Below are positions 8,364-62,190 of a stretch of DNA of 64,000 nt, in pieces. Each line of letters starts with the position of its first letter. Positions within the stretch are counted from its first letter, which is position 1. Made by a program: the position numbers and the translations under genes. This DNA comes from Candidatus Omnitrophota bacterium (GTDB taxonomy: Bacteria > Omnitrophota > Gorgyraeia > B26-G9). The stretch covers positions 49,164 through 113,163 of the forward strand of contig JAHITY010000072.1 in the NCBI GenBank assembly GCA_018817165.1, given 5' to 3'. The notes under the pieces are model-generated. The model had not been told where the DNA came from, did no database searches, and saw only the letters and a list, made by a program, of their open reading frames with translations.

Positions 8364-8398
8364 TTGTGACCTTGTGTCTTGGTGACTTTGTGACCTTG
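8364..8398. repeat. Degenerate heptamer microsatellite (CTTGTGW)x5
   Basis: 'cttgtga ccttgtgt cttggtga ctttgtga ccttg' directly abutting the stop of the minus-strand ABC permease gene. Same motif family as 38829, 44632, 48817 and 62067. Confidence 0.6.
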
Positions 8399-26200: not shown

Positions 26201-29200
26201 CAGGTAATTTAATCCTTAATGTTTCGGTTACTAACAATGAAGGAAGCGTTTTAACGATAAACAGCATTACCCTGAATAATGTCGGGACAGCCAGTGATGC
26301 TGAGATAACAGCAGTAAAACTTTACTATGATTCGAATAATTCTTTGGATTATACTCCGGGAGTGGATACACAGGTTGGCAATAGCGGTTTTTCTTCAGGC
26401 ACTAAGATGTTTTCCGGATTTAATATAAATATTTCGGCGGGAGCAACCCAATATTTATTCGCGGTTGTTGATGTGGCTTCGGCTTGCGCTAGTGGTAAAA
26501 TATTGGATGTCTCTATTCCGATCAATGGGATCACTTTTTCTAATGGTAAGAAACTGGCTAGCGCGGTTTTAAATTCCAATGGGACAAGACAGACATATAT
26601 AGGTTTGAATCATTTTGTGATTAATCATGATGGCGCGGCGATTGCCGGCTTAGATGAACATATTACGATTACAGCTAAAGATGCTTATGGTAATACTAAA
26701 ACAGACTATACCGGGACAATAACTGTTGATACTGATGGTACCGCGGAATCAATCTCCTGGTCAAAATACGCAGGTAACGGAGTGTTTACTGACGGAGGTT
26801 CAAGCCTTGATACGGCGACATATACTTTCGCGCTATCAGATGGAGGAGTTGTAGTTTTAAATATCAGCAATCAGATCGCTCAGACAATCAATATCTCGGT
26901 AAACGGTGACGCTAAGAGTGATGATAATACAGAACCTGATCTTAGTTTTTCCGCGGGGTTGGTGGATAAATTTATTCTAAATCATGATCAGGCGGCGATT
27001 GCCGGGCAAGGAGAAACAATTACGATTATTGTGAAAGATAGTTTTGGCAATACAGTGACTAATTATTCCGGACAGATAACTTTGGGAACAGATGGTTCGG
27101 CTGCGGATATTAGCTGGACACTTAATTCCGGTTCAGGCATATTTTTGAATAATGGAGCTGGTGCCGGCACGGCAATGTATACTTTTGATCCGAGTGATTC
27201 CGGAACAGCGAGCTTTGAAATAATGGATAATAAAGCAGAGACAATAAATATTATCGCGGTTGGGGATGGAAAATATGATGATAATAGTGAAGGAGCGCTT
27301 GTTGTGGCGCCTGGAGAATTACACCATTTTGTGATCAGTCATGATCAATCTGCTAATGCCGGCAGCGCGGAAGTGATTTCCATAACAGCTTTAGACAGTT
27401 TAAATAATATAAAAACTAATTATACCGGAACAGTTACTTTGGATACAACAGGGACAGCGACAAAAATTACTTGGGCGCTTAATGCGGGTAATGGAATTTT
27501 TATTGACGGCGGAGGATCATTAGATACGGCGACATATACGTTTAATGCTTTGGATAATGGGATAGCGGTATTTAATTTAACTGATACAAAAGCAGAAATA
27601 ATTAATATTTCAGTTGTTGCCGGCAGTATTACTGATAATGATACTGAGGGCAATATGATTGTTGGACCCGGAGAAATAGATTATTTTCTGATCAGTCATG
27701 ATAGAATAGCGACAACTGATGTTTCAGAGCAAATAATGATCACAGCTTATGATGCTTTTGCGAATATTAAAAATGATTATACCGGGACAATAGGATTAGA
27801 TACCACGGGAACGGTTACGACAATCACCTGGACATTGATCAGCGGTGAAGGGATATTTAATGACTCAGGCCCTTCAGATGATACTGCCAGCTATACTTTT
27901 ACCGCGGATGATTCAGGAGTGGTTATTGTAAGCATTATTAATTATACAGCGGAATCAGTAAATATATCGGTTACAGGAGATGGTAAAACAGATAATAATC
28001 TTGAAGGAAATCTAGTATTTGTTTCTTCCGGGATCGATCATTTTTTAATTGTTCATGATAATAACGCGATTGCCGGTATCGCGGAAAGTATTTCAATTTA
28101 TGCTAAAAACGCTAATGGCGATACCTTGACCAGTTACGGCGGGCAAATTACGATTGATACAACCGGAACCCCCGGAACAATCAGCTGGGCATTACAATCA
28201 GGTACCGGGGATTTTACTGATTCCGGTGCTGCTGATGATACTTGTTCTTATATATATGATGATGCTGATTTGGGTGTAGTTGTTTTGACTATGATTGATT
28301 CTACGGAAGAAACAATAAATATTTCAGTTTTCGGTGAAGCTAAAACAGATAATAATACAGAAGGAAATTTAGTGATTAATCCCGCAGGGCTGCATCATTT
28401 TTCAATCACCCATGATAATAACGCAATTGCTGGAATCGGGGAAACAGTAACTATTCAGGCAAAGGACGCGAATAATAATACTTTAAATACTTATGCCGGA
28501 CAAATTAATCTGGATACAACTGGGACAGCAACAACAGTTACTTGGGCAAAAATTTCCGGTAATGGCAGTTTTAGTGATGGGGGAGCTTTGGTTGATACAG
28601 CAACATATTCGTATGTTGCCGGAGACAGCGGGACTTGTGTTTTGAGTATTACAGATACTAAAGTAGAATCCTTAAACATATCAGTAGCTGGCGGGGGGAA
28701 AACTGACGATGATAAAGAAGGCTTATTAACAATTGGGGCAGGAGCGATTGATCATTTTACAATCAGTCATGATGGAATCGCGGTTGCCGGGGTCGCGGAT
28801 AATGTAACGATAACGGCTTATGATGCTTATGGTAATATTAAGACTAATTATACAGGTCAAATTACTTTGGATACTAATGGTACCGCGACAACAATAACCT
28901 GGGCCAAAGCTGCGGGACTGGGAACTTTTATTGAAGGCGGAGCAGCAGTGGATACAGCGACATATACATTTTTAGCTGCGGATAATGGGCAATGCATACT
29001 TAAAATAACTGATACAAAATCAGAAAGTCTGAATATTTCTGTTATCGGAGATGGAAAAAGTGACAATGATTCAGAAGGTAATTTAATTGTCAGTCCAACC
29101 AGTTTACAGTATTTTATGGTCAGTCATGATACTAATGCTGAGGCGGGAGTAGCGGAAAATATAACAATCACAGCCTATGATCTATATTCAAATATCAAAG

Positions 29201-32200
29201 ATAATTATACCGGGACAATAACTTTGGATACAAATGGAACGGCAACAACAATCAGCTGGTCGAAAGTAACTGGTAATGGTGTGTTTACTGATGGCGGGGC
29301 AGCTGTAGATACCGCTACTTATACTTATACTGACAGTGATAAAGGCATTGTGGTATTAAGTATTAATGACACTAAAAAAGAGAATATTGATATTGATGTT
29401 TTTGGCGGAGGAAAAACCGATACGGATACTGAGGGTATTTTAGTTATAGCTCCGACCAGTATTAATCACTTTGTAATTACGCATGATGGCAATGCTGAGG
29501 CTGGGATAGCGGAAAATATAACAGTTAAAGCATATGATATTTACTCAAATTTAAAAGATAATTATATGGGTACGATCGGCTTAAATACTAATGGAACAGA
29601 GACAACTATAACCTGGGCAAAGATAACTGGTAATGGCGTATTTGTCGATGGCGGCGCGGCTGTGGATACAGCAAGTTATACTTACGCAGATAGTGATGAT
29701 GGTATTGCGGTTTTTTCGATTACAGATACAAAAAAAGAGGTAATCAATATTACTATATCCGGGGATGGTAAAAGCGATACTAATACCGAAGGTGATTTAA
29801 CAGTAGGCGCTTCGGCGATTAATTATTTTACGATTTTTCATGACGGATCAGGGGTGGTTGGTTTGGGCGAATCAATCGCGATTTACGCTAAAGATACTTG
29901 GGGAAATATTAAAGATAATTATATCGGACAGATCACTGTGGATACTAATGGAACAGCAACAGCGATTGCCTGGACATTATCTGCCGGAGTCGGCGTATTT
30001 GTCGACGGAGGAGCGGCAGCTGATACCGCGACATATACTTTCAGTGATGCTGATGACGGTTTGGTTGTTCTGTCTTTAAATAACAGTGTCGCGGAAACAA
30101 TAAATATTTCAGTCAGCGGTGACGGCAAGACAGATGATAATACAGAAGGCAATTTAATTATAAATCCAGTGGGCGGATTAAATACCGGTTATTTATCGCC
30201 AACAGCAAATAGCGGTAATTTTACCAGCCCGGCAAATGCTTATGCTAATGATACCTCGCGGGCAACTTCATCTAATGGGCAATCACAGCAGTATTCTAAT
30301 TACGGGATCAATATTCCTGCGGGATCAACGATTTTAGGGATTGAAGTACAGATGGACGCGTATGCTTCAACTACTACTGGTTTGATCCAAGGACTGGTTG
30401 AATTATCCTGGAATGGTGGAACAAATTTTACTTCCACTGGAAAAATTACTCCGGATATGATTACCTCTGAAGTAACTTATATTTTGGGCGGGCCAACTGA
30501 TATTTGGGGCAGGACATGGACAGTCGCGGATTTAACCAATGCTAATTTTCGTTTAAGAATTAATGCCAGCACCCCTGGGACAACAAGTTATTTATATCTG
30601 GATTGGATCCCGGTCAGGGTTTATTATGATCTGCCGCCAGACGCGATTGCTAATCCTGTCAGCACAAATTCAGTGTCCGCCGGGGCAAGTAATATTTTAA
30701 GCCTTGACATTACGGTTACCAACTCTGCCAGCCAGAATAGAATTATAAATTCTCTGACAATTAATAATACCGGAACTTTATCAGATACAGAGATTGCTTC
30801 ATTAAAATTATATTATGACAGTAATAATTCCGGGGATTATACAGTAAATGTTGATAATCAAGTCGGCTCAGGGGTATTTAATTCCGCCTCAAAAACTTTT
30901 ACTGGCTTAATTATAACTGTTCCGCCCAGCGGTTCGGCAGATCTTTTTGTAGTTTGTCAGATCGCGCAAACTGTAAATGACGCGGATACTTTGGATATAC
31001 AGATCCCGAGCAATGGAATAAGTTTTGCTAATGGAGTTCAAATAGAAGATACAGCATTAAATTCAGCAGGGATAATCCCGGTTTCCTTAGTATTAAATCA
31101 TTTTGTGATTGTGCATGATCAAGCGGCGGTCACTGGTATTCCGGAACAGGTAAGAATCACGGCGCATGATGTTTATGGAAATATTAAGACAGCCTACACC
31201 GGGACAATAACTTTGGATACAAACGGAACCGCAACAGCGATAACTTGGGCAAAAGTCACAGGTAATGGGGTGTTTACAGACGGCGGAGCAGCTGTTGATA
31301 CAGCGACATATATATTTAACGCAACGGATAATGGTACTGCTTTGTTTAGCATTGTTGATAATAAAGCTGAGACAATTAATATTTCAGTCAGCGGAAACGC
31401 TAAAATTGATGATAATACTGAAGGCAATCTTGTGATTTCTTCGGGAGCAATCGACCATTTTCAGATTAGTCATGATAGCGCGGCTGTTGCCGGAGTCCCG
31501 GAAAACATAATCATAACAGCAAAAGACGTGTTTAATAATACGGTTGCTAATTATACCGGACAAATAATTCTAGACACAAATGGCACTGCCGCGGGAATAA
31601 GCTGGGAATTGTTTTCCGGTTTTGGAGTTTTTGCTGATGGCGGTCAAGGAGTTGATACGGCAACTTATACTTTTAATTCCTCGGATAATTCAACTGTTAC
31701 TTTTACGCTTACCGCAACAGTAGCGGAAACTCTTAATATCGCGGTAACCGGGGATGGGAAAGCTGATGATAATACTGAGGCAAATCTGATTGTTTCGGCT
31801 GCGGGTTTGAATCATTTTTTAATTAATCATGACGGAGCAGCGCAAGCGGGAGTAGCGGAGACAATAACAATCACGGCAAAAGATCAGTATGGGAATACGA
31901 AAAAGAATTATACTGAACAGATCAGTTTGGATACCAATGGAACAGCCTCGACAATAGTTTGGGCAAAAATCAGCGGTAATGGTACATTTGTTGACGGCGG
32001 TTTATCTGTTGATACTGCTACCTATACCTATAATTTGGCGGATAATGGCGTAGTTATATTATCACTGAAAGATACAAATCTTGAATCTTTAAATATTTCA
32101 GTTTCCGGATCAGGCAAAACAGATAATGATAGTGAAGGGCTACTTAATGTCGGCCCAGGGATAATTAATCATTTTTCAATTATCCATGATGGTTTTGGAT

Positions 32201-35200
32201 TGCAGAATCAAGCAGAGGAAATCATTATTAAAGCGTATGACGCGTATAATAATATTAAAACTGATTATACAGGATCAATAATTGTAGACACAAATGGGAC
32301 AGCAAATGCTATTACCTGGGCATTGAATGCCGGCAGCGGAGTTTTTAATGATAACGGGGCGAGTGTAGATACAGCGACTTATACATTTAATCTTAGTGAC
32401 AATGGACAGGTTATATTATCGTTGACTGATACTGTTTCTGAAATAATTAATATTTCAATATCCGGTGATACGAAAACAGATGATGATAATGAAGGTGTTC
32501 TGGAAATTGTTGCCGCGGGATTTCATCATTTTAAAATCACGCATGATGGAAACGCGATTGCTGGTATTGCTGAACAGATCATGGTCACGGCTAAGGATGC
32601 TAGTGATGTGACGATTACTAATTATGCCGGAACTATTACTTTGGATACAAATGGCACTGCTACGGAAATAAGCTGGGCATTGCAGTCAGGAACCGGAGCA
32701 TTTAATGACAATGGGCTAACGGTTGATACAGCAACATATACTTTTAATCTGAGTGACAATGGAACTGCGGTTTTTACAATTACGAATACACAGATTCAGA
32801 CAATTAATATAAGTGTTAGCGGCAGTGGGAAAACTGATGATAATACGGAAGGCAATTTAGTTTTTAATCCTCCGGGATTAAAGCATTTTAGGATTACACA
32901 TGATGGTTCAGCAATTGCCGGAGTCGTTGAAAATATTATAATTACCGCGCGTGACGCAAACAGTAATCCAGTTGTGAATTATACCGGGTCTATTACTCTT
33001 GATACAAACGGCACTAGCGGAACAATTGCCTGGTCAAAAATTTCCGGTAATGGCACATTTACTGACGGCGGAGCAGCAGTTGATACAGCGACTTATTCAT
33101 TTGCCGCCGCGGATAATGGCACAGTTACTCTGGGTATAGTCAACACTAAGGCTGAGTTGTTTAATGTTTCGGTCATTGGTGACGCCAAGACTGATGATAA
33201 TTTAGAAGGGGATATTACAGTTATCGCGAATGCACTGAATAAATTTATTATTGTTCATGATGCCAGCGCGCAGGCTGGTATTGCGGAGAATATAATAATT
33301 ACCGCTAAAGACGCTTATGCAAATACAATCATTAATTATACCGGGACAATAAATTTAGATACAAATGGAAACGCAACAACAATCAGCTGGGCCAAGGTAA
33401 CAGGCAGTGGAGTGCTGAATGATGGGGGCGCCTTGGTTGATACAGCTGATTATACTTTTGGGTTGGCGGATAATGGAGTGGTTGTTTTAAGCATTACAGA
33501 TACGACAGTAGAAAACCTGAATATCTCAGTGGCTAGTGATGGTAAATCCGATGATGATACGGAAGGGATTTTGATTGTCGGGGCAGGGGCTTTAGATAAA
33601 TTTATTGTCAGTCATGATGGTTCAGGATACGCGGGTATCGGAGAATTGATCACAGTAAAAGCCTATGATATATACGCAAACATAAAGACAAATTATAGCG
33701 GAACGATCACTGTGGATACTAATGGAACAATGAACGCGATCAGCTGGTCATTAAATTCCGGATTGGGTGTCTTCACTGATGGCGGGGCCGCGGTTGATAC
33801 GGCGACATATACTTTTGTGGCTGGAGATAATGGCTTGGTTGTGCTGATGCTTATTGATACAGCCGCTGAATCTATAGATATTGATATTTCCGGCTCAGGA
33901 AAATTTGATGATGATAGCGAAGGAAATATGTTGGTTTCTCCCAGCGGATTACATCATTTTTTGATTGAGCATGATGCGAGTGCCATGGCCGGTATCGCGG
34001 AAAGTATCAATATTTATGCCAAAGATTATTATAATAATACGCAAAATGATTATACCGGAACGATTACCTTGGATACTACGGGGACAGCGACAACAATTAC
34101 CTGGTCAAATATTTCCGGCAATGGAATGTTTAATGATAATGGAGCAAGTCTGGATACAGCTGCTTATACTTTTATTTTAGCAGATAATGGCTTGGTTAGT
34201 TTTTCGCTTAATGATACTACCGCGGAAATCCTGAATATTTCGGTCAGCGGTGACGGTAAATTTGATGATGATACTGAAGGTGGTTTAACAGTAAGCCCCA
34301 ATGTTTTGAATTATTTTTCAATAAGTCATGATGGGTCGGCAGTGCAATCAATCGGTGAAGAAATAATGGTTACAGCTAAAGATCAATATGGCAATATAAA
34401 AACCGACTATATCGGAACAATTATTCTAGATACGGATGGGGATGTGAATAATATCAGTTGGGAGTTGAAAAACGGGGCAGGGTTTTTTACTGACGGCGGT
34501 TCTGGGGTTGATACAGCGATGTATACTTTTGCTTTACAGGATAATGGAGAAGCTTTTTTTAATATAACTGACAATACAGCGCAAACCATAGACATTGATG
34601 TGAATGATGGTTCGATTATTGATGATGACACAGAGGGCGCTCTTGTTGTACAGGCTTCATCATTAAGTGTGGATATTACGGCTAATACTTTGAGCAGCGG
34701 GTATATAAGTCAAACAGTGACTGATAAATTAATTTTGGATCTTACGCTTACAAATAACAATGTTCTGGCCGCTGACACGATTCAGAGCCTGACGATTAAT
34801 AATAGCGGAACAATCCCTGATAGCCAGATCAGCGCAATAAAACTTTTTTATGACAGCAATAACTCCGGTGAATTTGAACCAGGTATTGATGCGCAGATCG
34901 GGACTAAAGTTTTTAGCGGCGGAGCAGCTGTATTTAATGATATTGATGTATTGATTCCAATTGCCGGAACAGAAGAATTATACGCAACAGTAGATTTAAG
35001 CGGAACGGTTACTAATGGGGCAAGCGTGGATATAAGTGTTCCGATTAATGGAATTAGTTTTGAATTTTCGCCAACAGCTGAAGATAGTATTTTAAATTCG
35101 ACAGGAAGCTATATTGTTGATTCCGTGGGTCCGGGTAATGTTTCCGGCTTGGCAACAAACTCCCATAATAATGCGATCAGCACTTGGAGCGATCCGCAAT

Positions 35201-38200
35201 CAAAAGATAATACTGTATCAGTAACCTGGAGTCCGGCAATTGACGCAGACAGCGGTTTGGATGGTTATTCTTTGCTCTGGGATACAAATCCGACAACAAT
35301 TCCCGACACTATAAAAGATATAGAACAAACACAGAATTCAAATACAAGCCCTGCGCTGGTAAATGGGAATACTCATTATGTGCACATAAGAAGCGTAGAC
35401 AATGTCGGTAACTGGGCATCAACAGCAGTCCATCTTGGGCCATTCTATATTGACACACAAGTTCCAACGCCAGTTTCAGTTTATCAAATCAGTGAATACG
35501 CTGGAGGAGATTATTTGAGTGTAAGCGGAAATACAATTTATTATTCGGGACTCGCTTATTCCGCATTTCGGGTTTATCTGGCTGCCAGTGATGCCGCATC
35601 AGGATTAAAAGAAGCATTATTTCCCACAACAACAAGCTCCGGAGGAACAGACACAACTGAAGATGTTGGCGCATATCAATATTTATATACATATGAAATC
35701 GCAGCACCGGCAACTAGTTTTAATAATGTGAATGCTGTGGTTTATGATAATGCGGGTAATTCGATTAATGTTCCCTTTAGTGTGGTTTTAGACAGTACAG
35801 CGCCAAATTTTGTGACAACCCTTACATCATCATCGCATACTCAGGGCGTTCCCTCAATTAATAATGATATTACCTTTACCTGGTCGGATGTGAGTGATAC
35901 TCAGTCCGGAGTCGCGGGATATAGTATTATTGTAAATACAAATCCAACTACTATCCCGCCACAATATCTGAATGTGGATCAAGGCCAAGGAACGTATACA
36001 GCAAATGATCGGGCTTCCGGTAGTTATTATGGACATATCCGCAGTGTGGATAATGTGGGTAATTGGTCAAGTACAGTTACTCATGCCGGACCATATATAA
36101 TCGGTAGAGGGAATCTAAACGCGGCGATTACCAGTTCGAAAAATATTGTCAGCACGGATCAGCAGTTTTCAATTACGATGACAGTGGACAATAGCGGAAG
36201 TTCGGCGGTTAATGATGTTGATCCGAGTACTTTGACTGTGAGTACAACCGGCGCGGCAACAGCTACTACAAGTTCCAATCCAGCTGCTCAGGATATTGCC
36301 GCGGCAGGGCAAAAACAATTTCAATGGGTATATACAGCGGGAGCAAATCCCGGAACAATTAGTTTTAAAGGTTACGCGCAGGGCACAGATACTGATGGGA
36401 TAATTAAATCGAGTGTTATTTCTTCAAATGATATTACGGTCGAACAAAAAGCTAATTTGAGCTTGAGCGTTTCCGCTGCTCCGTCAACTGTAAATACCAA
36501 TGAAAACATAACGATCAAAGTAACTGTTTCTAATAGCGGGCAAGCCGACGCGGTAAATGTGGCGCTATTGTTAACTCCATCTGGTTCTGCGAATCCGATT
36601 ATTGATTCAGGTCCCAGTCCGGCTACATCAACAATAAAGGGCGGAAGGTCAAAGGAGTTTACTTTTATTGCGCATGGAGCGGGTGCGGGTGTTGCTAATT
36701 TCGCGGCTTATATTTCCCAGGGAACTGATGAGAATTCTAATCTGCTTTTGCTAGCAATACAAGCGCAGGATTCAGTCACAGTGCAATCACCGCCATTCTA
36801 TGAGCTGACATCGTCAATAAGCGCAACTCCTGTTTCGGTGCAGCCAGCAGAGACAATTACAATTATAATGAATGTGCAGAATACCGGAGGCAGTATATTA
36901 ACTAATATTACTCCGTCAAGTTTGGCGGTGGGAGGAACTTCCTCAGACGCTATTTATGCGACTGGGCCTACTCCGGCTAATGTATCAACTTTGGCTGCTG
37001 GAGCAGCGCAGCAGTTTAGCTGGACTTATACCGCGGGCAGTACATTAGGCAGTATTAACTTTACGGGTAATGCTAATTCAACAGAAATAGGATCCAGCGC
37101 AACAGCTTCCAGTGATATTACGATTTTAACTGAAGCAGCTGTTTTAACATCAGCGATTGCCGCTACGCCAGCATCTTTACTGACTAATGCGACAATAACC
37201 GTGACAATGAGTGTGACCAATACAGCTAATAGCGGAGGGGCAACAGCAGAGAATGTGATTCCTTCGATTTTAACAATCGGCGGCAGCAGCGGAGAAGCAA
37301 ATTTATTGACTGGTCCAAGTCCCTCCAGCGCAAACATCGCTCCTCAGGCGCAGCAGAATTTTGTCTGGACCTATAAAGCGGGAATAACTCCGGGTACAGT
37401 TAATTTTACGGGGAATGCCTCAGGTACTGATTCCAGTGATTCTTCAGATGTAAGTTCCGCGGCTAATGCTTCAGCTAATGTGAGCATCAGCACGCTAAAC
37501 GCGGATTGGATATATCCTACAGGGGCAAATGTGCTGGGGCCGATCCGGAGCATTCCGATTGCTTATTGGGGCATGGAAAATAAAATTTATATTGGATCAG
37601 ATGATAATAATCTATACATCTTAAACGGAGATACGCATGAACTTGATAGCAGCTTTACAACCTCGGGAAAGATCAGAGGTTTGCCATATCCATCAACGGA
37701 TATTGATGGAGCGGATTTAAAAGATATTGTTTATTTTGGAACAGTGGGTAAAACAGTTTATGGTTTATGGGCAGACAATACGCTCAGATGGAATAGGGTA
37801 ATGGGTGAGGCCCTGACAACCACAGTATTATATGATTATGTTTCCGGCGTCTATTTTGGGACAACCGCGAATAATATTTATTGTATTGATGCCGCGGATG
37901 GAACAGATTTCTGGGGAGCTCCGGCAGCTGTAGGCGGGGCGATTGAATCATCGCCGGCAATGATTTATGTGCCGACTTTGGATTATGATGAAATATACTT
38001 TGGAGCAAGCGATGGAAAAGTTTATGGGTTTAAGGCGATTGACGGCACCGGAGCGCGCACATTTGATACGGGTTTTGGGGCAGAGGGGGCAATTAAAACA
38101 GCGCCAACAATTACTTTACAAAACCCGAGTGTCGGCAGTTCAAGGCGCTTGATGGTATTTGGCACGGCCAATGGAAAATTTTACGCGGTGAATACAGCGA

Positions 38201-38640
38201 ATCTAAGTTCAGCTCCCGCGGATACAGGTTGGAGTGTTAATCCGATTTCCGTGGGCGGGGCAGTTTATTCCGCGCCCTGGTTTGATACTGGTTCACGCTA
38301 TGTATTTTTTGGTTCGCAGGATGGCAAACTGTATGCAGTGAGTATTGCTGATGGGAGTATGAAGCCAAATTTTCCAGTAGACGTGGGATCGCCGATTGAT
38401 TCCTGGCCATTGGTTGAAAACGGTATAGTTTATTTTGGCGCGGATAATGGCAAGTTTTACGCAGTTGATGTTGTCACTGGGCAAATAGTTCCGGGATGGC
38501 CTTATGATACCGGCGATGCGATTAAAGGCGGCGCGGCGCTGCATTTGATATATAATACTGATACCTGGGATGTGGAAGAAACTTATGTAATCGTTGGTTC
38601 AGACTCGGGTAAGGTTTATTCGTTTAGAGCCGTGAGATAA
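20248..38640 (+). CDS. Giant (6130 aa) secreted multi-repeat surface/adhesin-like protein: signal peptide, Fn3-like x3, 27 Ig-like (~119 aa) repeats in three blocks, LamG-like, three copies of a beta-sandwich 'SITLNN' domain, Fn3-like x2, DUF11-like repeats, C-terminal PQQ-type beta-propeller
   Basis: Uninterrupted 18.4-kb ORF. N-terminus 'LLKFCLTFLFFIGPLIIFTSFAQA'. Fn3-like 'PYFEWSGATDTGGTGVNGYSVYWG...YYLRVRTFD' x3 (~21350-22330). Ig-like repeats 'HFVI.HDG.A.AG..E.ITITAKD.YGN.KTDYTGTITLDTNGTA..ISWAK..GNG.F.DGG..VDTATYTF...DNGV.VLS..DT..E.INISV.GDGKTDDNTEGNL' starting ~22690, 26610 and 31100 (7+10+10). LamG signature 'GQLDEVRYS' (~26040). DUF11-like 'ITSSKNIVSTDQQFSITMTVDNSG' (~36100-37500). 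PQQ-like 'IYCIDAADGTDFWG', 'LYAVSIADGS', 'FYAVDVVTGQ' (37500-38640). Confidence 0.9.
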   Translation: MLRNTKKVNNIDFPNNLLKFCLTFLFFIGPLIIFTSFAQADVPVFMAYSQASATSGGTINVTKPSGTVQGDLLIASYVSDDIYTLTAPSGWTLIQGGYSNPVDNTPSFGVWYKIADASEPTSYTFSSGGNDDQYVAILRYQGHDPAAPINNSAIAYSTGSNAPTAPSINTTREECVILRVFGADDDDTPYNVPAGYSERYNGKSTASNSSCGGAGADTTQALPGATGTAAFSMNAIEEWMAVTIAIAPPPKPNVNITVTPNQTKAQNSGGLEFKLVFDQVMNTSIAPVVSYDPAGVLGAQSCTGGTWSTTTLTNDTYKVYNDNPITDSTGDGTATISVSAAKSAAGAIMNPDTNDTFLIDATVPINPTQPCSAWNSSSKINSIANDTWQEADNTPYFEWSGATDTGGTGVNGYSVYWGNDAYGEPALIQEQSASNYNVSSGTADGVYYLRVRTFDIIGNYSQSVTLFTFRYDAGVPLNPDIPCAAWQSNLKVNPISNNTWQQADDTPYFEWTGANDSGGSGISGYSVYWGTDINGAPGVSQEQGNADYEISTPTGDGTYYLRIRTFDNLNHYSAPITLFTFRYDATAPLNPTVPCNAWDSSSKNTVISDNTAQGIDSSPYFEWSGADDGSGQGVSGYSVYWGIDPEGEPATAQEQSAANYNIVSAVSEGTYYLRIRTFDALGHYSDAVTLFTFILDQTKPTVSVGVLPDPSGHRAPGELGFTLLFSESMDMGTDPIVSYDPSGATGVQNASLNGAWSTTNNPNDTYTVYNSNAINSATGEGTATISISMAKDIAGNTMLADTNDVFSINTAIDHFVIEHDGSGLINIPETITITAKNITNCTVNDFTGQITLSTLNETKQITWALVSGNGTFVDNGLGNDSATYTFNAADNGVVVLQLTCSAANNLDIEATDGTHSDDDTEGTLVISTTALGWFVIEHDNAAVAGVKEDIKVTAKDTNGLTKTDYVGTVILDTTGTPTTISWTISTGLGTFSEGGASVDTAQYTFNPNDNGVAIFTIKDTKAETLNISVDDAGKTDNNLEGNLVIAPGALNHFIVSHDAQAIAGIADSVTIRAYDIYNNIKTDYVGTMTVDTNGTDSAISWAKISGNGIFTDGGPSADTATYGFVSADAGVVVLSITDTKKETIDIDASAEGKTDTDSEGTMVISAAAIDYFLISHDTAGSAGVAEQVTVLAKDSYGNTKTDYTGTITLDTNGTAAAISWAKAVGNGIFTDNGPSVDTATYVFDLTDNGIAVFSIIDSTAESINISVSGDAKTDNNTEGNLVIGPAVIWSFRVTHDGAGNAGLAETVTITALNSIGQIKTDYTGTITIDTNGTATAISWTKLIGNGTFNDGGVAVDTAVYTFSALDNGVVTLAITDNAVESIDIDVSGSGKTDDDSEGLMNIDTALLAYFRIAHDGIAVAGINENITITAKDTLGQTKTDYTGTIYIDTDGTANTITWTKISGAGGFVDDGAAADTCAYTFSAADNGVVVLGMSDTFTETINISVSGSASDDNTEGLLQVRPGTLSKFIISHDNNAFTGIPEHITIAAYDGFNNIKTDYTGSIIVDTNGTATTISWAKYQGAGTFVDGGASVDTATYTYNSADTGIVTLDMTDMTAETINISVSGGGSVDDNTEGNLVITQFLLGNWTYNKEVTIDRTKVMAALTDFPVLISIVDTALRDNARSDGFDIVFTASDKNTKLDHEIESFDKATGTLVAWVKIPSLLASADTKIYMYYGNPAASDQQNKSGVWDSSYKGVWHLNNDPSITAPQVKDSTSNNNAMTSYGTMTNTDLVYAKVGKGIDFDGSNDYFKKTSPVGVGTPGDYTVSAWFKYTSSPANYGTIYNHNNYSPQFGFYNQSVAMVYHSSLITSSGTATHNDNQWHKVDYRRVGSTVYFYVDGVLHGTGSHTRTFPTATSALIGWSNYSNEYWLGQLDEVRYSTTARSPEWIATEYNNQNSPATFINVGLAATATANPVITDTVPVGQTGNLILNVSVTNNEGSVLTINSITLNNVGTASDAEITAVKLYYDSNNSLDYTPGVDTQVGNSGFSSGTKMFSGFNINISAGATQYLFAVVDVASACASGKILDVSIPINGITFSNGKKLASAVLNSNGTRQTYIGLNHFVINHDGAAIAGLDEHITITAKDAYGNTKTDYTGTITVDTDGTAESISWSKYAGNGVFTDGGSSLDTATYTFALSDGGVVVLNISNQIAQTINISVNGDAKSDDNTEPDLSFSAGLVDKFILNHDQAAIAGQGETITIIVKDSFGNTVTNYSGQITLGTDGSAADISWTLNSGSGIFLNNGAGAGTAMYTFDPSDSGTASFEIMDNKAETINIIAVGDGKYDDNSEGALVVAPGELHHFVISHDQSANAGSAEVISITALDSLNNIKTNYTGTVTLDTTGTATKITWALNAGNGIFIDGGGSLDTATYTFNALDNGIAVFNLTDTKAEIINISVVAGSITDNDTEGNMIVGPGEIDYFLISHDRIATTDVSEQIMITAYDAFANIKNDYTGTIGLDTTGTVTTITWTLISGEGIFNDSGPSDDTASYTFTADDSGVVIVSIINYTAESVNISVTGDGKTDNNLEGNLVFVSSGIDHFLIVHDNNAIAGIAESISIYAKNANGDTLTSYGGQITIDTTGTPGTISWALQSGTGDFTDSGAADDTCSYIYDDADLGVVVLTMIDSTEETINISVFGEAKTDNNTEGNLVINPAGLHHFSITHDNNAIAGIGETVTIQAKDANNNTLNTYAGQINLDTTGTATTVTWAKISGNGSFSDGGALVDTATYSYVAGDSGTCVLSITDTKVESLNISVAGGGKTDDDKEGLLTIGAGAIDHFTISHDGIAVAGVADNVTITAYDAYGNIKTNYTGQITLDTNGTATTITWAKAAGLGTFIEGGAAVDTATYTFLAADNGQCILKITDTKSESLNISVIGDGKSDNDSEGNLIVSPTSLQYFMVSHDTNAEAGVAENITITAYDLYSNIKDNYTGTITLDTNGTATTISWSKVTGNGVFTDGGAAVDTATYTYTDSDKGIVVLSINDTKKENIDIDVFGGGKTDTDTEGILVIAPTSINHFVITHDGNAEAGIAENITVKAYDIYSNLKDNYMGTIGLNTNGTETTITWAKITGNGVFVDGGAAVDTASYTYADSDDGIAVFSITDTKKEVINITISGDGKSDTNTEGDLTVGASAINYFTIFHDGSGVVGLGESIAIYAKDTWGNIKDNYIGQITVDTNGTATAIAWTLSAGVGVFVDGGAAADTATYTFSDADDGLVVLSLNNSVAETINISVSGDGKTDDNTEGNLIINPVGGLNTGYLSPTANSGNFTSPANAYANDTSRATSSNGQSQQYSNYGINIPAGSTILGIEVQMDAYASTTTGLIQGLVELSWNGGTNFTSTGKITPDMITSEVTYILGGPTDIWGRTWTVADLTNANFRLRINASTPGTTSYLYLDWIPVRVYYDLPPDAIANPVSTNSVSAGASNILSLDITVTNSASQNRIINSLTINNTGTLSDTEIASLKLYYDSNNSGDYTVNVDNQVGSGVFNSASKTFTGLIITVPPSGSADLFVVCQIAQTVNDADTLDIQIPSNGISFANGVQIEDTALNSAGIIPVSLVLNHFVIVHDQAAVTGIPEQVRITAHDVYGNIKTAYTGTITLDTNGTATAITWAKVTGNGVFTDGGAAVDTATYIFNATDNGTALFSIVDNKAETINISVSGNAKIDDNTEGNLVISSGAIDHFQISHDSAAVAGVPENIIITAKDVFNNTVANYTGQIILDTNGTAAGISWELFSGFGVFADGGQGVDTATYTFNSSDNSTVTFTLTATVAETLNIAVTGDGKADDNTEANLIVSAAGLNHFLINHDGAAQAGVAETITITAKDQYGNTKKNYTEQISLDTNGTASTIVWAKISGNGTFVDGGLSVDTATYTYNLADNGVVILSLKDTNLESLNISVSGSGKTDNDSEGLLNVGPGIINHFSIIHDGFGLQNQAEEIIIKAYDAYNNIKTDYTGSIIVDTNGTANAITWALNAGSGVFNDNGASVDTATYTFNLSDNGQVILSLTDTVSEIINISISGDTKTDDDNEGVLEIVAAGFHHFKITHDGNAIAGIAEQIMVTAKDASDVTITNYAGTITLDTNGTATEISWALQSGTGAFNDNGLTVDTATYTFNLSDNGTAVFTITNTQIQTINISVSGSGKTDDNTEGNLVFNPPGLKHFRITHDGSAIAGVVENIIITARDANSNPVVNYTGSITLDTNGTSGTIAWSKISGNGTFTDGGAAVDTATYSFAAADNGTVTLGIVNTKAELFNVSVIGDAKTDDNLEGDITVIANALNKFIIVHDASAQAGIAENIIITAKDAYANTIINYTGTINLDTNGNATTISWAKVTGSGVLNDGGALVDTADYTFGLADNGVVVLSITDTTVENLNISVASDGKSDDDTEGILIVGAGALDKFIVSHDGSGYAGIGELITVKAYDIYANIKTNYSGTITVDTNGTMNAISWSLNSGLGVFTDGGAAVDTATYTFVAGDNGLVVLMLIDTAAESIDIDISGSGKFDDDSEGNMLVSPSGLHHFLIEHDASAMAGIAESINIYAKDYYNNTQNDYTGTITLDTTGTATTITWSNISGNGMFNDNGASLDTAAYTFILADNGLVSFSLNDTTAEILNISVSGDGKFDDDTEGGLTVSPNVLNYFSISHDGSAVQSIGEEIMVTAKDQYGNIKTDYIGTIILDTDGDVNNISWELKNGAGFFTDGGSGVDTAMYTFALQDNGEAFFNITDNTAQTIDIDVNDGSIIDDDTEGALVVQASSLSVDITANTLSSGYISQTVTDKLILDLTLTNNNVLAADTIQSLTINNSGTIPDSQISAIKLFYDSNNSGEFEPGIDAQIGTKVFSGGAAVFNDIDVLIPIAGTEELYATVDLSGTVTNGASVDISVPINGISFEFSPTAEDSILNSTGSYIVDSVGPGNVSGLATNSHNNAISTWSDPQSKDNTVSVTWSPAIDADSGLDGYSLLWDTNPTTIPDTIKDIEQTQNSNTSPALVNGNTHYVHIRSVDNVGNWASTAVHLGPFYIDTQVPTPVSVYQISEYAGGDYLSVSGNTIYYSGLAYSAFRVYLAASDAASGLKEALFPTTTSSGGTDTTEDVGAYQYLYTYEIAAPATSFNNVNAVVYDNAGNSINVPFSVVLDSTAPNFVTTLTSSSHTQGVPSINNDITFTWSDVSDTQSGVAGYSIIVNTNPTTIPPQYLNVDQGQGTYTANDRASGSYYGHIRSVDNVGNWSSTVTHAGPYIIGRGNLNAAITSSKNIVSTDQQFSITMTVDNSGSSAVNDVDPSTLTVSTTGAATATTSSNPAAQDIAAAGQKQFQWVYTAGANPGTISFKGYAQGTDTDGIIKSSVISSNDITVEQKANLSLSVSAAPSTVNTNENITIKVTVSNSGQADAVNVALLLTPSGSANPIIDSGPSPATSTIKGGRSKEFTFIAHGAGAGVANFAAYISQGTDENSNLLLLAIQAQDSVTVQSPPFYELTSSISATPVSVQPAETITIIMNVQNTGGSILTNITPSSLAVGGTSSDAIYATGPTPANVSTLAAGAAQQFSWTYTAGSTLGSINFTGNANSTEIGSSATASSDITILTEAAVLTSAIAATPASLLTNATITVTMSVTNTANSGGATAENVIPSILTIGGSSGEANLLTGPSPSSANIAPQAQQNFVWTYKAGITPGTVNFTGNASGTDSSDSSDVSSAANASANVSISTLNADWIYPTGANVLGPIRSIPIAYWGMENKIYIGSDDNNLYILNGDTHELDSSFTTSGKIRGLPYPSTDIDGADLKDIVYFGTVGKTVYGLWADNTLRWNRVMGEALTTTVLYDYVSGVYFGTTANNIYCIDAADGTDFWGAPAAVGGAIESSPAMIYVPTLDYDEIYFGASDGKVYGFKAIDGTGARTFDTGFGAEGAIKTAPTITLQNPSVGSSRRLMVFGTANGKFYAVNTANLSSAPADTGWSVNPISVGGAVYSAPWFDTGSRYVFFGSQDGKLYAVSIADGSMKPNFPVDVGSPIDSWPLVENGIVYFGADNGKFYAVDVVTGQIVPGWPYDTGDAIKGGAALHLIYNTDTWDVEETYVIVGSDSGKVYSFRAVR

Positions 38641-38828: not shown

Positions 38829-38877
38829 ATTGTGTCCTTGTGACTTGTGAACTTGTTATTTAAATAAGGGAGTTTGT

Positions 38878-40011
38878 ATGAAAAGGATTATTTGCGCTGT
38901 AGTTCTAATCGTAATTTTGTGTGCTGTGCCGGCAGTTGCCGCGGACTGGCCGATGTTTCGTAATGATGCTTTACATCAAGCGCAATCTAAAGAAATATTG
39001 CAGCCGCCTTTAAAGGAAAAATGGCATTTCAGCACTCAGGGAAAAATTATTTCATCGCCCAGTGTTTATAATAATGCGGTATTGATCGGCTCAAGAGATA
39101 ATTATTTGTATTGCCTTAATGCGGAGAACGGTGGTTTAAATTGGAAATTCCAAACAAGAGGATGGATAGATTCATCGCCAGCGGTTTCTAATGACAAAGT
39201 TTATATTAGCTCTAGAGATGGAAATTTATATTGTTTGAATTTTGAAGATGGCAAGCTTTTATGGAAATATGCAACTGGCGGCACTGATTTTTCTTCGCCC
39301 TTGGTCGCGGATAATAAAGTGTTTTGCGGCAGTGGGTTTCCAAATAAGTTTATTTACGCGCTTGACGCAAAGAGTGGTAAAGAGATATGGAAAGTGGAAA
39401 CAAATCAAATGGTATATTCATCAGCAGCTTTGGATGGAGATCAATTGTATGTCGGGTCTAATGATGGATATGTTTATTGTTTGAATAAAGACACTGGAGC
39501 TGTGCTGTGGAAGTATCAGACCAAAGGCGGTATTTATATGGCATCACCGACTATGGATGCAAATAAATTATATATTGCTGCCGGTGATTTCGACTGGTCG
39601 GTTTACGCGCTTAATCTTGATAAAGGCACTGAGGCATGGAAGTATACAATTGAAGATAGTCAGTCTACCCCTAATTATGTATCAACAGTGGCGGTATCGG
39701 ATAAAGGTATCTTTATTATCGCGGGTTATGAACAACAATATATTTATTGTTTAAATGGTTTAAATGGAAAATTGCAGTGGAAGCAGGCATTAGGTCCAGC
39801 AGCGCGATATGGATTTGCCTCTTCAGCTTGCGTTACCGAAGATATTGTTTATGTTGCTTCAGCAAAAGGCATATTAATCGGTTTGGAAATCAGCACAGGT
39901 GTGTTAAAATGGCAGTATGGATTAGGCTCAGGAGTGCTTTCATCTCCGGCAGTATCTGAGGGCAAATTATTTATTGGTACAATTGATGGTAAATTGTACG
40001 CGTTTGAATAA
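38878..40011 (+). CDS. Secreted PQQ-repeat beta-propeller protein (BamB-like)
   Basis: 377 aa. Signal peptide 'MKRIICAVVLIVILCAVPAVAADW'. Repeated 'LYCLNAENGGLNWKF', 'LYCLNFEDGKLLWKY', 'IYALDAKSGKEIWKV', 'VYCLNKDTGAVLWKY' (PQQ enzyme repeat pattern). RBS 'aagggag'. Confidence 0.8.
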   Translation: MKRIICAVVLIVILCAVPAVAADWPMFRNDALHQAQSKEILQPPLKEKWHFSTQGKIISSPSVYNNAVLIGSRDNYLYCLNAENGGLNWKFQTRGWIDSSPAVSNDKVYISSRDGNLYCLNFEDGKLLWKYATGGTDFSSPLVADNKVFCGSGFPNKFIYALDAKSGKEIWKVETNQMVYSSAALDGDQLYVGSNDGYVYCLNKDTGAVLWKYQTKGGIYMASPTMDANKLYIAAGDFDWSVYALNLDKGTEAWKYTIEDSQSTPNYVSTVAVSDKGIFIIAGYEQQYIYCLNGLNGKLQWKQALGPAARYGFASSACVTEDIVYVASAKGILIGLEISTGVLKWQYGLGSGVLSSPAVSEGKLFIGTIDGKLYAFE

Positions 40012-42341: not shown

Positions 42342-44123
42342 CTATTTTTTCACTGGTTGATCCTGATGGGTTTTTCTGGTTTTATTTTTTGTTTTCTTTT
42401 TGGTCTTTTTTTGTGAGTCAGGATTAACCACAGTTTCTACTGCTGCTTTTAATTCTTCTGTGGTCTGCGCTTGTCCGATTATATTCAGTTTATCTTTAGA
42501 AGCTTGAGTCATTTCCTGAAGTTCTTTGATGCTTTTAAGGATTGTCGGGCTGAGGAAAATAAGCAATTCTGTTTTTAATGTTGTTTTTTCGGTTTTCTTA
42601 AATAAATTTCCAATAAAAGGAATATCGCCAAGTAAAGGTACTTTATTTTCAATAATGCTATCATTGTCGCGCATTAATCCGCCAAGAACAACAGTATGGC
42701 CATCAGGAACCATTACAGTGGCATCAGCTTCCCGCTTATTGATTATGCTGGCATCAAATAATGTTTTAGCGCTCAAGTCTTTTAATTCAGCATGCACTTT
42801 TAAATTAACAAATCCATCTTGACTTATTCGGGGCGTGACTTTAAGGCCTAGGCCAACATCTTGATATTTGAAATTAACAGTAGTGACATTATTTACCAAA
42901 TCAGTGACTGATGATTCAATGATTGGAATTTCCTGTCCTACAGTGATAGATGATTCCTGATTATTAGAGGCTAAAATCCGGGGGGTGGAAAGCACTTTTG
43001 TGTTTTCCTGAGTTTTTAAAATAAAGCCTAAAAGATTCGTCCGTTCATTTTGATTTAAAATTCGATAAGTGAATCCTTGAGTCGAGGCTTCAGTGGATAA
43101 ATTAAGCAGGGAGTGAAAGATGTTTTGATCCTTGCTACCGCTTTTAATTCCTTCGGTTGTCAGCGTGGGGTTAGTTGAAGACGCGTATTCAACTCCCATG
43201 GTCAGGTCATCGCTGAGGGTGACATCCATCAGGATGACTTCAATCATTGCCTGAGGAGGGAAAACATCAAGTTTTGTGATCAAACGCTCAATCGCCGGAA
43301 AATTAACCAAAGCAGTAGCTACTACTATTGAATTTGTTTCTTCTTCGGAATAAGCTTCAATCGCGCCAAAAATTTCTAAAGGAATATCGCCTAAGCCCAG
43401 CTCGCTAAATTCCGGGTATCTGGCATCTTTATCTTCTTTGGACAGATCATTTAATATTTTAGAAATTTTAACAGCATCGCCATAATTAACTACAAAGGTT
43501 TTAACCTGCATGCTTGCTGGCAGAGGCCGGTCGATTTGCGAGATAATAGTAGCTAAACGTTTAATATTAGAAGAAGTATCTGTAATTACTATAGTATTTG
43601 TCCGCTCATTAGCCAGGATATTGCCATGTTTGCCGATTAAGGATTGGAGCTCATTTTTAATTTTGATCGCTGAAGAGTATTTTAGAGGCATTACTTGAGT
43701 GATAACAATATCCTGATCTTTTATAAATCCCGGCCAGCTTCCGACTTGGACTTCAACGCTTGATTGCTTAATGTCAGCTACCGGGACAATTTTCAAAGTT
43801 TCTCCTGACTTTATGACTGTAAATCCGCGGATCATTAGCGCGCTTTCCAACACATTTATTACTGTTTCAGGTTTTACTTTTTCCATGCTTACTATGGAGA
43901 TAGTTCCTTTAAGATTTTCATTGGGAATTATTATTGTACCGGTTAAATCGCCTAATACCTTAATTGCTTGATTTATATCCGTATCTTGGAAGCTCAAAGA
44001 AATTAGATTTTCAGACTCAGGGTTGTTTTCAGAAGTTTCCCTGTATTCCTGGGAAAAAATATTCACTGGATTGGAAAAAAGTAAGAGAAAAATCCCGATA
44101 CAGATTAATTTATAATATTTCAT
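42342..44123 (-). CDS. pilQ: Secretin (PilQ/GspD family outer-membrane channel)
   Basis: 593 aa. Signal peptide. C-terminal secretin signature 'VPDGHTVVLGGLMRDNDSIIENKVPLLGDIPFIGNLFK'. Lys-rich C-terminal tail. Downstream of pilMNOP-like genes on the same strand. Confidence 0.9.
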   Translation of the reverse strand: MKYYKLICIGIFLLLFSNPVNIFSQEYRETSENNPESENLISLSFQDTDINQAIKVLGDLTGTIIIPNENLKGTISIVSMEKVKPETVINVLESALMIRGFTVIKSGETLKIVPVADIKQSSVEVQVGSWPGFIKDQDIVITQVMPLKYSSAIKIKNELQSLIGKHGNILANERTNTIVITDTSSNIKRLATIISQIDRPLPASMQVKTFVVNYGDAVKISKILNDLSKEDKDARYPEFSELGLGDIPLEIFGAIEAYSEEETNSIVVATALVNFPAIERLITKLDVFPPQAMIEVILMDVTLSDDLTMGVEYASSTNPTLTTEGIKSGSKDQNIFHSLLNLSTEASTQGFTYRILNQNERTNLLGFILKTQENTKVLSTPRILASNNQESSITVGQEIPIIESSVTDLVNNVTTVNFKYQDVGLGLKVTPRISQDGFVNLKVHAELKDLSAKTLFDASIINKREADATVMVPDGHTVVLGGLMRDNDSIIENKVPLLGDIPFIGNLFKKTEKTTLKTELLIFLSPTILKSIKELQEMTQASKDKLNIIGQAQTTEELKAAVETVVNPDSQKKTKKKTKNKTRKTHQDQPVKK

Positions 44124-44737
44124 TTTGTCCCCCTAGTGCCAGATCTTATTTGCTGGATTGTATTTGCTCTTAAAGTTGGTGGTGATAAATCTTCTTCCAT
44201 AATAACAGGTTCTTGTTCAATATTGATTTCTGTTTTTTCAGTGGTAGGTTCTGAATTTTTTTGCTGAGCAGCTTGCTGGAGTTTTAATTCAAAGTCTTTT
44301 CCATCTTTTTGAATGATTATCTTATTTAGCATGATCGATTTAACGGTATAATCTTCAATAGCTTCATTAACCGAAACATAAAATCCCTTTTTTGTGCTTT
44401 TTTGCTCGACGATTGCTTTATAACCGTTTTTAATTTCAATAACTCCGGTGAGAATTAGATCTAAGCTGTCTTTTTCCTGTTTTATGTTTGTTTCAATTGG
44501 AATTGATCCAATTTCCGGTTGATCTTTTTTGGGGCGAAAAAAATTTCGCTGCTCAATAACTTTGTAATAATTGAAGGAGGCATCTTCATCAACCAGCAAG
44601 GCTGAATCAGTTGTCTGGGCATAACAGCAGCAAGATACAAGACACAAGACACAAGACACAAGAGTTGATAGTGTAAAATTTACAAAAAACGATTTCCGGT
44701 CTGCAGTTTGTGTGCTGTGAGTTATGGACTGATTCAT
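44120..44737 (-). CDS. pilP: PilP-like lipoprotein (inner-membrane pilus assembly lipoprotein); N-terminal lipobox encoded by a heptamer microsatellite
   Basis: 205 aa. Position between the pilO-like gene and pilQ. 'FTLSTLVSCVLCLVSCCCYAQ' contains an L-V-S-C lipobox, duplicated. 4-nt overlap with pilQ. Confidence 0.5.
   Translation of the reverse strand: MNQSITHSTQTADRKSFFVNFTLSTLVSCVLCLVSCCCYAQTTDSALLVDEDASFNYYKVIEQRNFFRPKKDQPEIGSIPIETNIKQEKDSLDLILTGVIEIKNGYKAIVEQKSTKKGFYVSVNEAIEDYTVKSIMLNKIIIQKDGKDFELKLQQAAQQKNSEPTTEKTEINIEQEPVIMEEDLSPPTLRANTIQQIRSGTRGTK
44632..44664. repeat. Heptamer microsatellite (ACAAGAC)x~5 inside the pilP signal-peptide coding region
   Basis: 'acaagat acaagac acaagac acaagac acaagag'. 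Reads CTTGTGT in mRNA sense and encodes 'LVSCVLCLVSC'. Confidence 0.7.
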
Positions 44738-44739: not shown

Positions 44740-45264
44740 TTACTGCTCCTTTAAAAATATAGTTGATATAATTAAATGACCTTTTAATAAAGCGGAACGC
44801 TCTGATTTTGGCTGCAGACTTAAGCGGTTGGCAACTAAGACAACTGATGATTTGCGCATTTCGTAGAGAAATCGGACAATATTTCCCAAATTAGCTTCCA
44901 TATTAATTTCCACGGATAATTCATTGGAAAAACCTAATTCTCTTAAAGGCTGAGGGTTCATTGATTCAATGTGGATGTTTGTTTTTCTGGCAACTTCTCC
45001 AATGGCGGTTAGAAAATTACTTTGGCCTCGCTCGGAGGGGAGTTTAGCCTGAATTTTTTTGTTCATGTTAGAATATGACTGATTCAGTGCTTCTTTTTGT
45101 TGAATGATTTTTCGGCTTTTTTCGAGCAAAGCCAGCTTTTGGTTTATCTGAGTTTTTTGTTCGTTTGATTTTCTAAGAAAAGGGCTGATTATAGAAATAT
45201 AAACCAGGCAAAGAGCAGCGATGCTGGCAATTATGAGTATAAGTTTTTTATTTTTTAGCCACAT
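44740..45264 (-). CDS. pilO: PilO-like pilus assembly protein (N-terminal TM + coiled coil + periplasmic domain)
   Basis: 174 aa. 'MWLKNKKLILIIASIAALCLVYISIISPF' TM followed by a coiled-coil 'KTQINQKLALLEKSRKIIQQKEAL'. Operon position between pilMN and pilP. Confidence 0.5.
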   Translation of the reverse strand: MWLKNKKLILIIASIAALCLVYISIISPFLRKSNEQKTQINQKLALLEKSRKIIQQKEALNQSYSNMNKKIQAKLPSERGQSNFLTAIGEVARKTNIHIESMNPQPLRELGFSNELSVEINMEANLGNIVRFLYEMRKSSVVLVANRLSLQPKSERSALLKGHLIISTIFLKEQ

Positions 45265-48729: not shown

Positions 48730-48844
48730 TTAATAATAAGTTACTAATTACAAATTTTAAGTTTTTGCTTTTTACTATTAGTTATCGACAATCAGCCATT
48801 AGCCCTAAGCTTTTACCTTGTGACCTTTGTCCTTTTTAATCACA

Positions 48845-62062: not shown

Positions 62063-62066
62063 AACG

Positions 62067-62122
62067 ACACAAGACACAAGACACAAGACACAAGACACAA
62101 GACACAAGACACAAGACACAAG
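62067..62122 (+). repeat. Perfect heptamer microsatellite (ACACAAG)x8
   Basis: 56 bp of exact tandem ACACAAG starting 5 nt after the wecA-like stop codon. Confidence 0.9.
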
Positions 62123-62190
62123 GTAAAAATTAAAAGCTTAAAGCAAAAAGGATATAGGCATATTAAAGTATTTATATTGTTGGAGTTAAT

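Follow-up and report, generated by a model that had tools for sequence, protein, structure and literature searches.

A heptanucleotide tandem array in the signal-peptide coding region of a PilP/GspC-like gene of the Omnitrophota

The window analysed here is the whole 64,000-nt stretch of DNA from a Candidatus Omnitrophota bacterium. It contains a gene cluster of the pilM-N-O-P-Q type, an order that is common to all related loci examined. The gene at 44120..44737 is placed between pilO (44740..45264) and a secretin gene (42342..44123), and it overlaps the latter by 4 nt. A PilM-PilN fusion gene and pilO lie upstream and the secretin gene downstream; the Pfam matches of these neighbours are PilM_2+PilN, PilO and Secretin. 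The 5' end of the gene carries a heptanucleotide array, and the features of this region are as follows.

44120..44737, minus strand: gene for a PilP/GspC-like HR-domain protein of 205 aa (open reading frame, Pfam T2SSC in the family, AlphaFold2, Foldseek)
44746..44752, minus strand: Shine-Dalgarno sequence AAAGGAG, 8 nt upstream of the ATG at 44737-44735, kept in orthologues
44615..44737, minus strand: presequence, codons 1-41, with n-region 1-15, hydrophobic segment 16-38 and then C-Y-A↓Q, the arrow marking the inferred cleavage site
44631..44663, minus strand: heptanucleotide array (CTTGTGT)x4.7, read on the coding strand, encoding h-region residues 26-36, LVSCVLCLVSC (TRF with codon and phase mapping)

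The closest proteins to the 205-aa product are from Candidatus Omnitrophota MAGs. The Pfam family T2SSC (PF11356) matches 11 of 16 family members with a best E-value of 7.9e-7, while the window protein reaches 19.1 bits, below the cut-off of 27. PF04351 (PilP) gave no Pfam match for the window protein, and a family profile search against PDB sequences matched nothing. The AlphaFold2 model contains a beta domain at residues 90-155 with a pLDDT of 87-94. In a Foldseek comparison of the model with the PDB, the best 14 matches are all PilP or GspC/PulC/LspC HR domains, including 3jc8_Pa, 2lc4, 3oss_C (TMt 0.80, rmsd 2.4 Å), 2y4y and 6hcg_e. As judged from the predicted fold, the product is a PilP/GspC-type HR-domain protein. 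Family profile searches found 5 loci in genome contigs and 3 in metagenome contigs, none of them from the species of the window, and exact-protein look-ups of the secretin and of the 159-aa product annotated by NCBI returned no record.

That 159-aa product, MBU1044163.1, starts at a TTG at codon 47 and thereby omits the signal peptide together with the repeat (window 44599-44737). The gene calls of JGI, ENA and Logan all give 205 aa. If the TTG were the true start, the array would be non-coding and would lie in an intercistronic spacer like other arrays of the clade, the majority of whose heptamer arrays are intergenic. Because no frame of the array contains a stop codon, that a frame stays open across it is by itself weak evidence of coding. 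However, the TTG at codon 47 lacks a Shine-Dalgarno sequence, whereas the ATG at 44737 has AAAGGAG and lies 2 nt past the pilO stop codon, an arrangement that recurs in every orthologue. A hydrophobic N-terminal presequence is present in all orthologues and closes in x-A-Q, and the orthologue in a sister MAG is annotated at full length, with 217 aa. A PilP/GspC protein lacking an export signal would also be unable to reach the secretin. A start downstream of the repeat, which had been named beforehand as a possibility, is therefore the weaker call, and we regard a non-coding array as highly improbable. Since the ATG with its conserved Shine-Dalgarno sequence sits upstream of the array, the repeat is coding. 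It lies within the signal-peptide coding sequence of the PilP-like protein and encodes LVSCVLCLVSC, as the initial sequence-only reading had it.

The same reading called the presequence a lipoprotein signal peptide, and this is not supported. Canonical PilP has such a signal, with a lipobox and a conserved Cys at +1. Here, a lipobox is found in just 3 of 16 family presequences, and the family alignment contains instead a conserved motif, [C/G/A/S]-x-A↓Q, at the presequence end. A small-x-A pattern at -3/-1 is typical of signal peptidase I, and cleavage of the family by this enzyme would fit the alignment. In the window protein, LVSC occurs twice and only through the repeat; going by the motif, its apparent lipobox is probably a by-product of the heptamer. 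The AlphaFold2 model places a helix in the presequence at residues 14-37.

The array at 44631-44663 contains 4.7 copies with a 96% match (TRF). Its perfect stretch covers 27 nt (44637-44663), which corresponds to 3.9 units, and there is one G>A interruption. The first codon is number 26, in phase 0 of ORF 44120..44737 on the minus strand. The T/G/C-rich heptamer CTTGTGT encodes one hydrophobic 7-residue peptide, LVSCVLC, from all three frames. A search of the window for a 14-mer with up to 2 mismatches returned 12 matches against 0.21 expected, 10 of which fall in this array and in a further array at 62066-62122. It had been proposed that ACACAAG/CTTGTGT heptamers occur at five loci of the window. 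Two of these stand (44631-44663 and 62066-62122); those at 8364, 38829 and 48817 are elements of another type. The heptamer also occurs twice in one orthologous locus, L031. Viral contigs scanned for (ACACAAG)x3 gave 12 matches, all unrelated.

62066..62122, plus strand: intergenic microsatellite (ACACAAG)x8, 8.1 copies at 100% (TRF)

This array, correctly predicted as an exact (ACACAAG)x8 at 62067..62122, starts about 4-5 nt past the stop codon of a WecA/MraY-family glycosyltransferase gene (61007..62062) and is followed by a gene for a 63-aa membrane protein (62190..62381). The orthologous spacer of L028, whose orthologue is 89% identical, contains (ACAGAGA)x2.6, and those of L029 and L030 contain no array; by comparison of these spacers, (ACACAAG)8 is species-specific. 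Locus L005 ends inside (ACACAAG)n, which we read as a k-mer assembly break and not as variation. The array resembles the 7-bp promoter repeats of H. influenzae hmw1A/hmw2A in being a non-coding heptamer array upstream of a gene, where copy number could tune expression (PMC2651432). It differs in that it directly follows the preceding stop and may be simply intercistronic, and no copy-number variation was seen. As RNA, (ACACAAG)8 is predicted to be unstructured. A role as a Rho-loading or Hfq ARN site was considered and dropped because the repeat matches neither consensus.

The loci at 8362, 38829 and 48817 are not ACACAAG microsatellites but short arrays of CCTTGTGAC-type motifs, which repeat about every 8 nt.

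8362..8398, plus strand: CCTTGTGA-type array, period 8, 4.6 copies, 79% (TRF), at the end of a dispersed repeat of ~240 nt
38829..38858, plus strand: CTTGTGA motif array upstream of gene 38878..40011, kept at the orthologous site of two further species (L006 and L007)
48817..48835, plus strand: CCTTGTGACCTTTGTCC motif, sub-threshold in TRF, ending 10 nt upstream of a -35 element

The suggestion of degenerate heptamer runs was thus right for 44632-44664 and wrong for 8364, where the period is 8, for 38829, where TRF finds 2.6 copies with an indel (38837-38856), and for 48817, which is below the TRF threshold. The placement of four arrays at gene boundaries was accurate: 62066 follows a stop, the array ending at 8398 adjoins the stop of the minus-strand gene 8401..9207, that ending at 38858 lies 20 nt ahead of an ATG, and that ending at 48835 precedes a promoter -35. 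The last of these is a homologous copy of the array at 8364, within the ~240-nt dispersed repeat (8133-8373 = 48582-48827). Its promoter, TTGACC-17-TATAAT at 48845-48873, is the best match in the 10.4-kb stretch scanned (38600-49000), and a similar arrangement is found in L010 at ~8486-8545. At 38829-38858 a -35-like TTGTGA can be seen by eye, although the promoter scan did not return it. The hexamer CACAAG/CTTGTG is ~6-fold enriched in non-coding DNA outside the arrays, with 8 non-array matches in 4.3 kb of non-coding DNA against ~1.3 expected. Beside or within promoters, the CCTTGTGAC-type arrays look like cis-regulatory motifs rather than microsatellites, to judge by position and motif.

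The heptamer at 44631-44663 belongs to a pattern that extends across the clade. TRF arrays in the window comprise ten of period 7, nine of period 9, two of period 8 and one of period 6. The related loci, too, have many arrays of period 7. In the non-coding DNA examined it outnumbers every other period; counted over all the DNA, period 9 leads by a small margin. Non-coding DNA makes up ~10% of the DNA examined and contains 15 of the 34 period-7 arrays. The "coding" arrays of this period lie mostly within the first ~150 nt of the pilP-like gene, whose 5' end is the sole gene end in the window showing lag-7 periodicity. Heptanucleotide repeats had been called rare in bacteria; to the contrary, in the part of PMC4679880 that summarises Mrazek 2007 they are the commonest long-unit SSR class, and period 7 tops the non-coding DNA here. 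Certain lineages are pervaded by specific heptamers, such as STRR and TAACTGA (PMC4679880). In the present clade, the spacer at 600-846 of L029 consists almost entirely of heptamer arrays, namely (TAGCGAT)x3.4, (GCTCATA)x4.1, (AAAACAG)x8.9 and (AACTCAT)x5.6, and TAGCGNT arrays occur at four loci of the window as well as in L007 and L029.

The 5' ends of orthologous pilP-like genes contain the following arrays.

L002: (AGAAGTC)x5 and (GTCTGTC)x~15
L014: (AGATGTC)x4 and (TTCTGTT)x8
L006: (TTTTCTG)x4.3
L013: (CAGGTTT)x3.6 and (CTTGGGA)x2.6
L010: a 14-mer x2.3 and (CCTGCGG)x2.6
L031: (GACACAG)x3.9, a degenerate ACACAAG type, and (TGTGTCT)x3.9

L014 differs from L002 and L003 by an exact 21-nt gap, or 3 units, within the array. 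Presequences with arrays are 38-61 aa long, those without are 23-33 aa. Across 50 family presequences the lag-7 residue identity amounts to 208 where 119.7 would be expected (z 8.9), a signal that derives largely from three related proteins (P0002, P0005 and P0007).

Together, these observations lead us to propose that the array at 44631-44663 is probably a slippage-generated heptanucleotide microsatellite in the hydrophobic core of a Sec-type signal peptide, and part of a clade-wide heptamer phenomenon. In the DNA examined from these Omnitrophota, heptamers are the dominant short tandem repeat and fill intergenic spacers, and the 5' ~120-180 nt of the pilP-like gene would be a hot spot at which arrays are born, homogenised and resized. 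The anatomy of the array, its coding status, the pattern across the clade and the in-frame 21-nt indel are direct observations; we infer slippage as the generating process. The h-region can tolerate T/G/C-rich heptamers because all three frames give one hydrophobic peptide, and as only frame-keeping length changes are fixed, the presequence would grow from the canonical 23-33 aa to 38-61 aa. At 3.9 perfect units, the array presumably has no dedicated switching function in the window genome.

The phenomenon bears a likeness to the cyanobacterial STRR, the TAACTGA repeats of Beggiatoaceae and the LSSR class of Mrazek 2007, with units of 5-11 nt: particular heptamers are found again and again in short direct arrays, mostly intergenic and near gene ends, which are common to related species and are now and then absorbed at the periphery of an ORF (PMC4679880). 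The differences are the phylum, Omnitrophota, and the units, which here include ACACAAG/CTTGTGT, TAGCGNT and AAAACAG. Moreover, many arrays in the present clade come after a stop codon, those of TAACTGA before a start codon, and here the 5' end of one orthologous gene has served repeatedly as a hot spot. Short tandem arrays of 7, 11-12 or 14 nt also encode the lysine-rich C-terminal tails of the secretins (window 42371-42414; L010 8287-8323; L008 8264-8296), which suggests that gene-boundary arrays have been absorbed into both ORF ends.

The array could also be a contingency locus, in which the PilP-like protein would be turned ON or OFF whenever slipped-strand mispairing adds or removes one CTTGTGT unit; via the overlap of stop and start codons, the downstream secretin would probably be affected as well. 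The unit is not divisible by 3 and sits in the 5' coding region of a gene for a cell-surface machine. In a simulation, arrays longer or shorter by 1 or 2 units leave a truncated protein of 38-89 aa, and a three-unit change alters only the presequence length, just as had been anticipated; the 21-nt difference between L014 and L003/L002 is a natural case of the latter. The 3.9 uninterrupted units exceed the threshold of 3 units applied to H. influenzae in a bioinformatic screen (PMC2651432), and in several species the runs are perfect over 3-4 units, which implies that slippage was recent. The architecture is that of Neisseria opa, where a pyrimidine-rich repeat with a unit not divisible by 3 lies in the 5' end of the gene, which codes for the signal peptide, and specifies hydrophobic leader residues (PMC3960869; bioRxiv 10.1101/2020.09.16.300947), and of E. 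coli K1 neuO, where a heptanucleotide repeat (AAGACTC)n in the 5' coding region encodes a 7-residue periodic peptide and full length is reached only when the frame is kept (PMC13001214). However, the opa CTCTT tracts are long, perfect and polymorphic within strains and switch at ~1e-3 per generation, while the present unit is of 7 nt rather than 5, with 3.9 perfect copies and neither polymorphism nor an OFF allele seen. The neuO repeat encodes a hydrophilic N-terminal extension and not a signal peptide; at its 5' end it has 3-53 units, mostly ~20, and 65.6% of genomes are OFF (PMC13001214). The hmw repeats of H. influenzae have 13-38 units (PMC2651432). Beside these proven loci the present tract is short and has an interruption. 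Each of the 12 orthologous loci with DNA keeps the reading frame, and no OFF allele was found among them. At the locus, the sequences of the window, L001, L004 and L005 agree in every base and contain no copy-number variant; these four probably represent one population. The 90% cluster has a single length variant, which reflects only where the start was called, and the gene is located in the middle of its operon instead of at the head. The family representatives P0142, P0147, P0156 and P0162 begin after the h-region, at or past the presequence end, and the start of P0147 is a Met internal in P0138. These short proteins could be OFF alleles produced by frameshift, mis-called starts or contig-edge effects. 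With identical assemblies across the population and all orthologous loci in frame, ON/OFF phase variation, as put forward in the sequence-only reading, is mechanically possible but unsupported, and we consider it unlikely. Were the repeat a switch, Omnitrophota would have their first proposed contingency locus; the evidence argues for caution.

A further set of observations concerns inverted arrays. In L031 the gene starts with ATG-ACACAGGACACAAGACACGGGACACAAG and the h-region ends with (TCTTGTG)x4, which places the heptamer of the window on both strands of the gene; the inverted pair is intact in this orthologue. The two proteins share 36% identity overall (BLASTP), and the BLASTP alignment pairs MNQSITHSTQ of the window protein with MTQDTRHGTQ of L031, the translation of an ACACAAG-type array. 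We therefore read the n-region of the window protein as a decayed 5' arm. Most likely, an older inverted pair once placed (ACACAAG)n at the start codon and (CTTGTGT)n in the h-region, and the array in the window is what remains of it, namely its 3' arm. To assess hairpins, the 5' coding regions were folded and compared with two nulls, a dinucleotide shuffle and a block shuffle that preserves local composition.

L031: MFE -63.9 kcal/mol (shuffles -36.0), z dinucleotide -7.1, z block -7.35; predicted hairpin within 58-245
L014: MFE -52.0 kcal/mol, z dinucleotide -5.2, z block -5.6; predicted hairpin within 4001-4165
L003: MFE -54.1 kcal/mol, z dinucleotide -4.8, z block -3.7; predicted hairpin within 3001-3185
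L002: MFE -38.1 kcal/mol, z dinucleotide -1.5, z block -1.2
Window gene: MFE -27.1 kcal/mol, z dinucleotide -0.36, z block -0.81
L006: MFE -15.4 kcal/mol, z dinucleotide +1.05, z block +0.62

L031, L014 and L003 have a significant predicted hairpin that includes the start codon, and in which a purine-rich array at the start codon pairs with its complement in the h-region. Under either null, the window gene, L006 and L002 fold no better than shuffles, and an L031-type hairpin in the 5' region of the window gene is rejected (z -0.36 and -0.81). It is conceivable that the whole PilP/GspC-like presequence of the clade was built from an inverted heptamer pair, giving a signal peptide and a hairpin that buries the start codon, with the window array as a decayed remnant. 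In such a scheme the purine-rich start-codon array would yield a polar, charged n-region and its reverse complement the hydrophobic h-region, so that a palindromic repeat would become a signal peptide in one step via sense/antisense hydropathy complementarity; the hairpin could bring translational control or a slippage-prone switch. We put this forward tentatively and find it doubtful on balance.

Alternatively, the array might be kept for a role of the nucleic acid itself, either as one side of an mRNA hairpin that hides the start codon and thereby controls or couples translation, or as an array of CTTGTG(A/T) protein-binding motifs that is also used beside promoters. The folding of the start region against the h-region array in L031, L014 and L003 speaks for such a role, as do the non-array hexamers in non-coding DNA and the CCTTGTGAC arrays kept at orthologous sites next to strong promoters. 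L031 retains the heptamer unit of the window, and sharing it at just 36% protein identity is hard to square with purely neutral turnover; this persistence hints at a sequence-level constraint, on the motif or on RNA pairing. Against it stand the folds of the window gene, L006 and L002, and the promoter scan near the array at 44631-44663, whose best match is 9/12; a CTTGTG(A/T)-binding protein is hypothetical. We judge a nucleic-acid role in the window quite unlikely, and favour the slippage-generated microsatellite in the hydrophobic core of the signal peptide. An internal promoter for the secretin gene within the array was also considered and found no support in the promoter scan.

Omnitrophota are uncultured and often host-dependent nanobacteria, whose pilus and secretion machines are foremost candidates for host contact. 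The clade appears to use heptamer microsatellites as raw material, both in intergenic spacers and in one signal peptide, where they have doubled the presequence length. The repeat has misled at least one automated annotation, with the result that the signal peptide was dropped. This outcome for evolution and annotation is more durable than the question of a switch. The inverted-array hairpins offer a testable case in which simple repeats would have given rise to a functional protein segment and an RNA structure at once.

Several other elements are present in the window, for which Rfam (gathering thresholds) and tRNA scans returned no matches. An element of ~45 nt, AAAGCAGCG[T/G]A(TAGCGNT)x3 TAGGAAAA, lies 1-12 nt past the stop of four plus-strand genes, always in the sense orientation. 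It reaches up to 95% identity in another species and lacks a hairpin. Its function may be that of a 3'-end element or of a site for an RNA-binding protein.

Window 38641-38678, 54083-54123, 55322-55362 and 60092-60132: TAGCGNT element
L007 ~2551-2585 and ~12089-12130, and L029 609-638: TAGCGNT element

A long GC-rich hairpin at 38738-38828 (MFE -46.3, z -4.5) lies between a TAGCG element and the CTTGTGA array. L006 keeps only the left arm and the adjacent loop of it, the right arm being missing. A T-run follows the hairpin on the minus strand, which makes it terminator-like without a gene.

Two families of dispersed repeats are palindromic and GC-richer, with RNA fold z-scores of -3.7 to -6.2. 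Both are missing from the orthologous spacer of L006, and they therefore behave like MITE/REPIN-type insertions.

48184-48321, 55475-55632 and 60155-60313 (inverted): palindromic repeat family 1
8142-8280 = 48591-48730: palindromic repeat family 2

The window also encodes a 387-aa Y1_Tnp (IS200/RAYT-like) protein at 62739..63902. Just upstream of it, the region 62431-62640 contains a promoter-like TTGACT-17-TATACT with an extended -10 TG and, ~150 nt on, a strong intrinsic terminator (62609-62631) with a T9 run. This region has neither an ORF nor an Rfam match and is a candidate small RNA. Finally, a 25/28-nt unit is repeated ~6.8 times at 20083-20266, at the start of a giant ORF of 6130 aa (20248..38640), which itself contains ~30 diverged repeats of 357 nt (119 aa).
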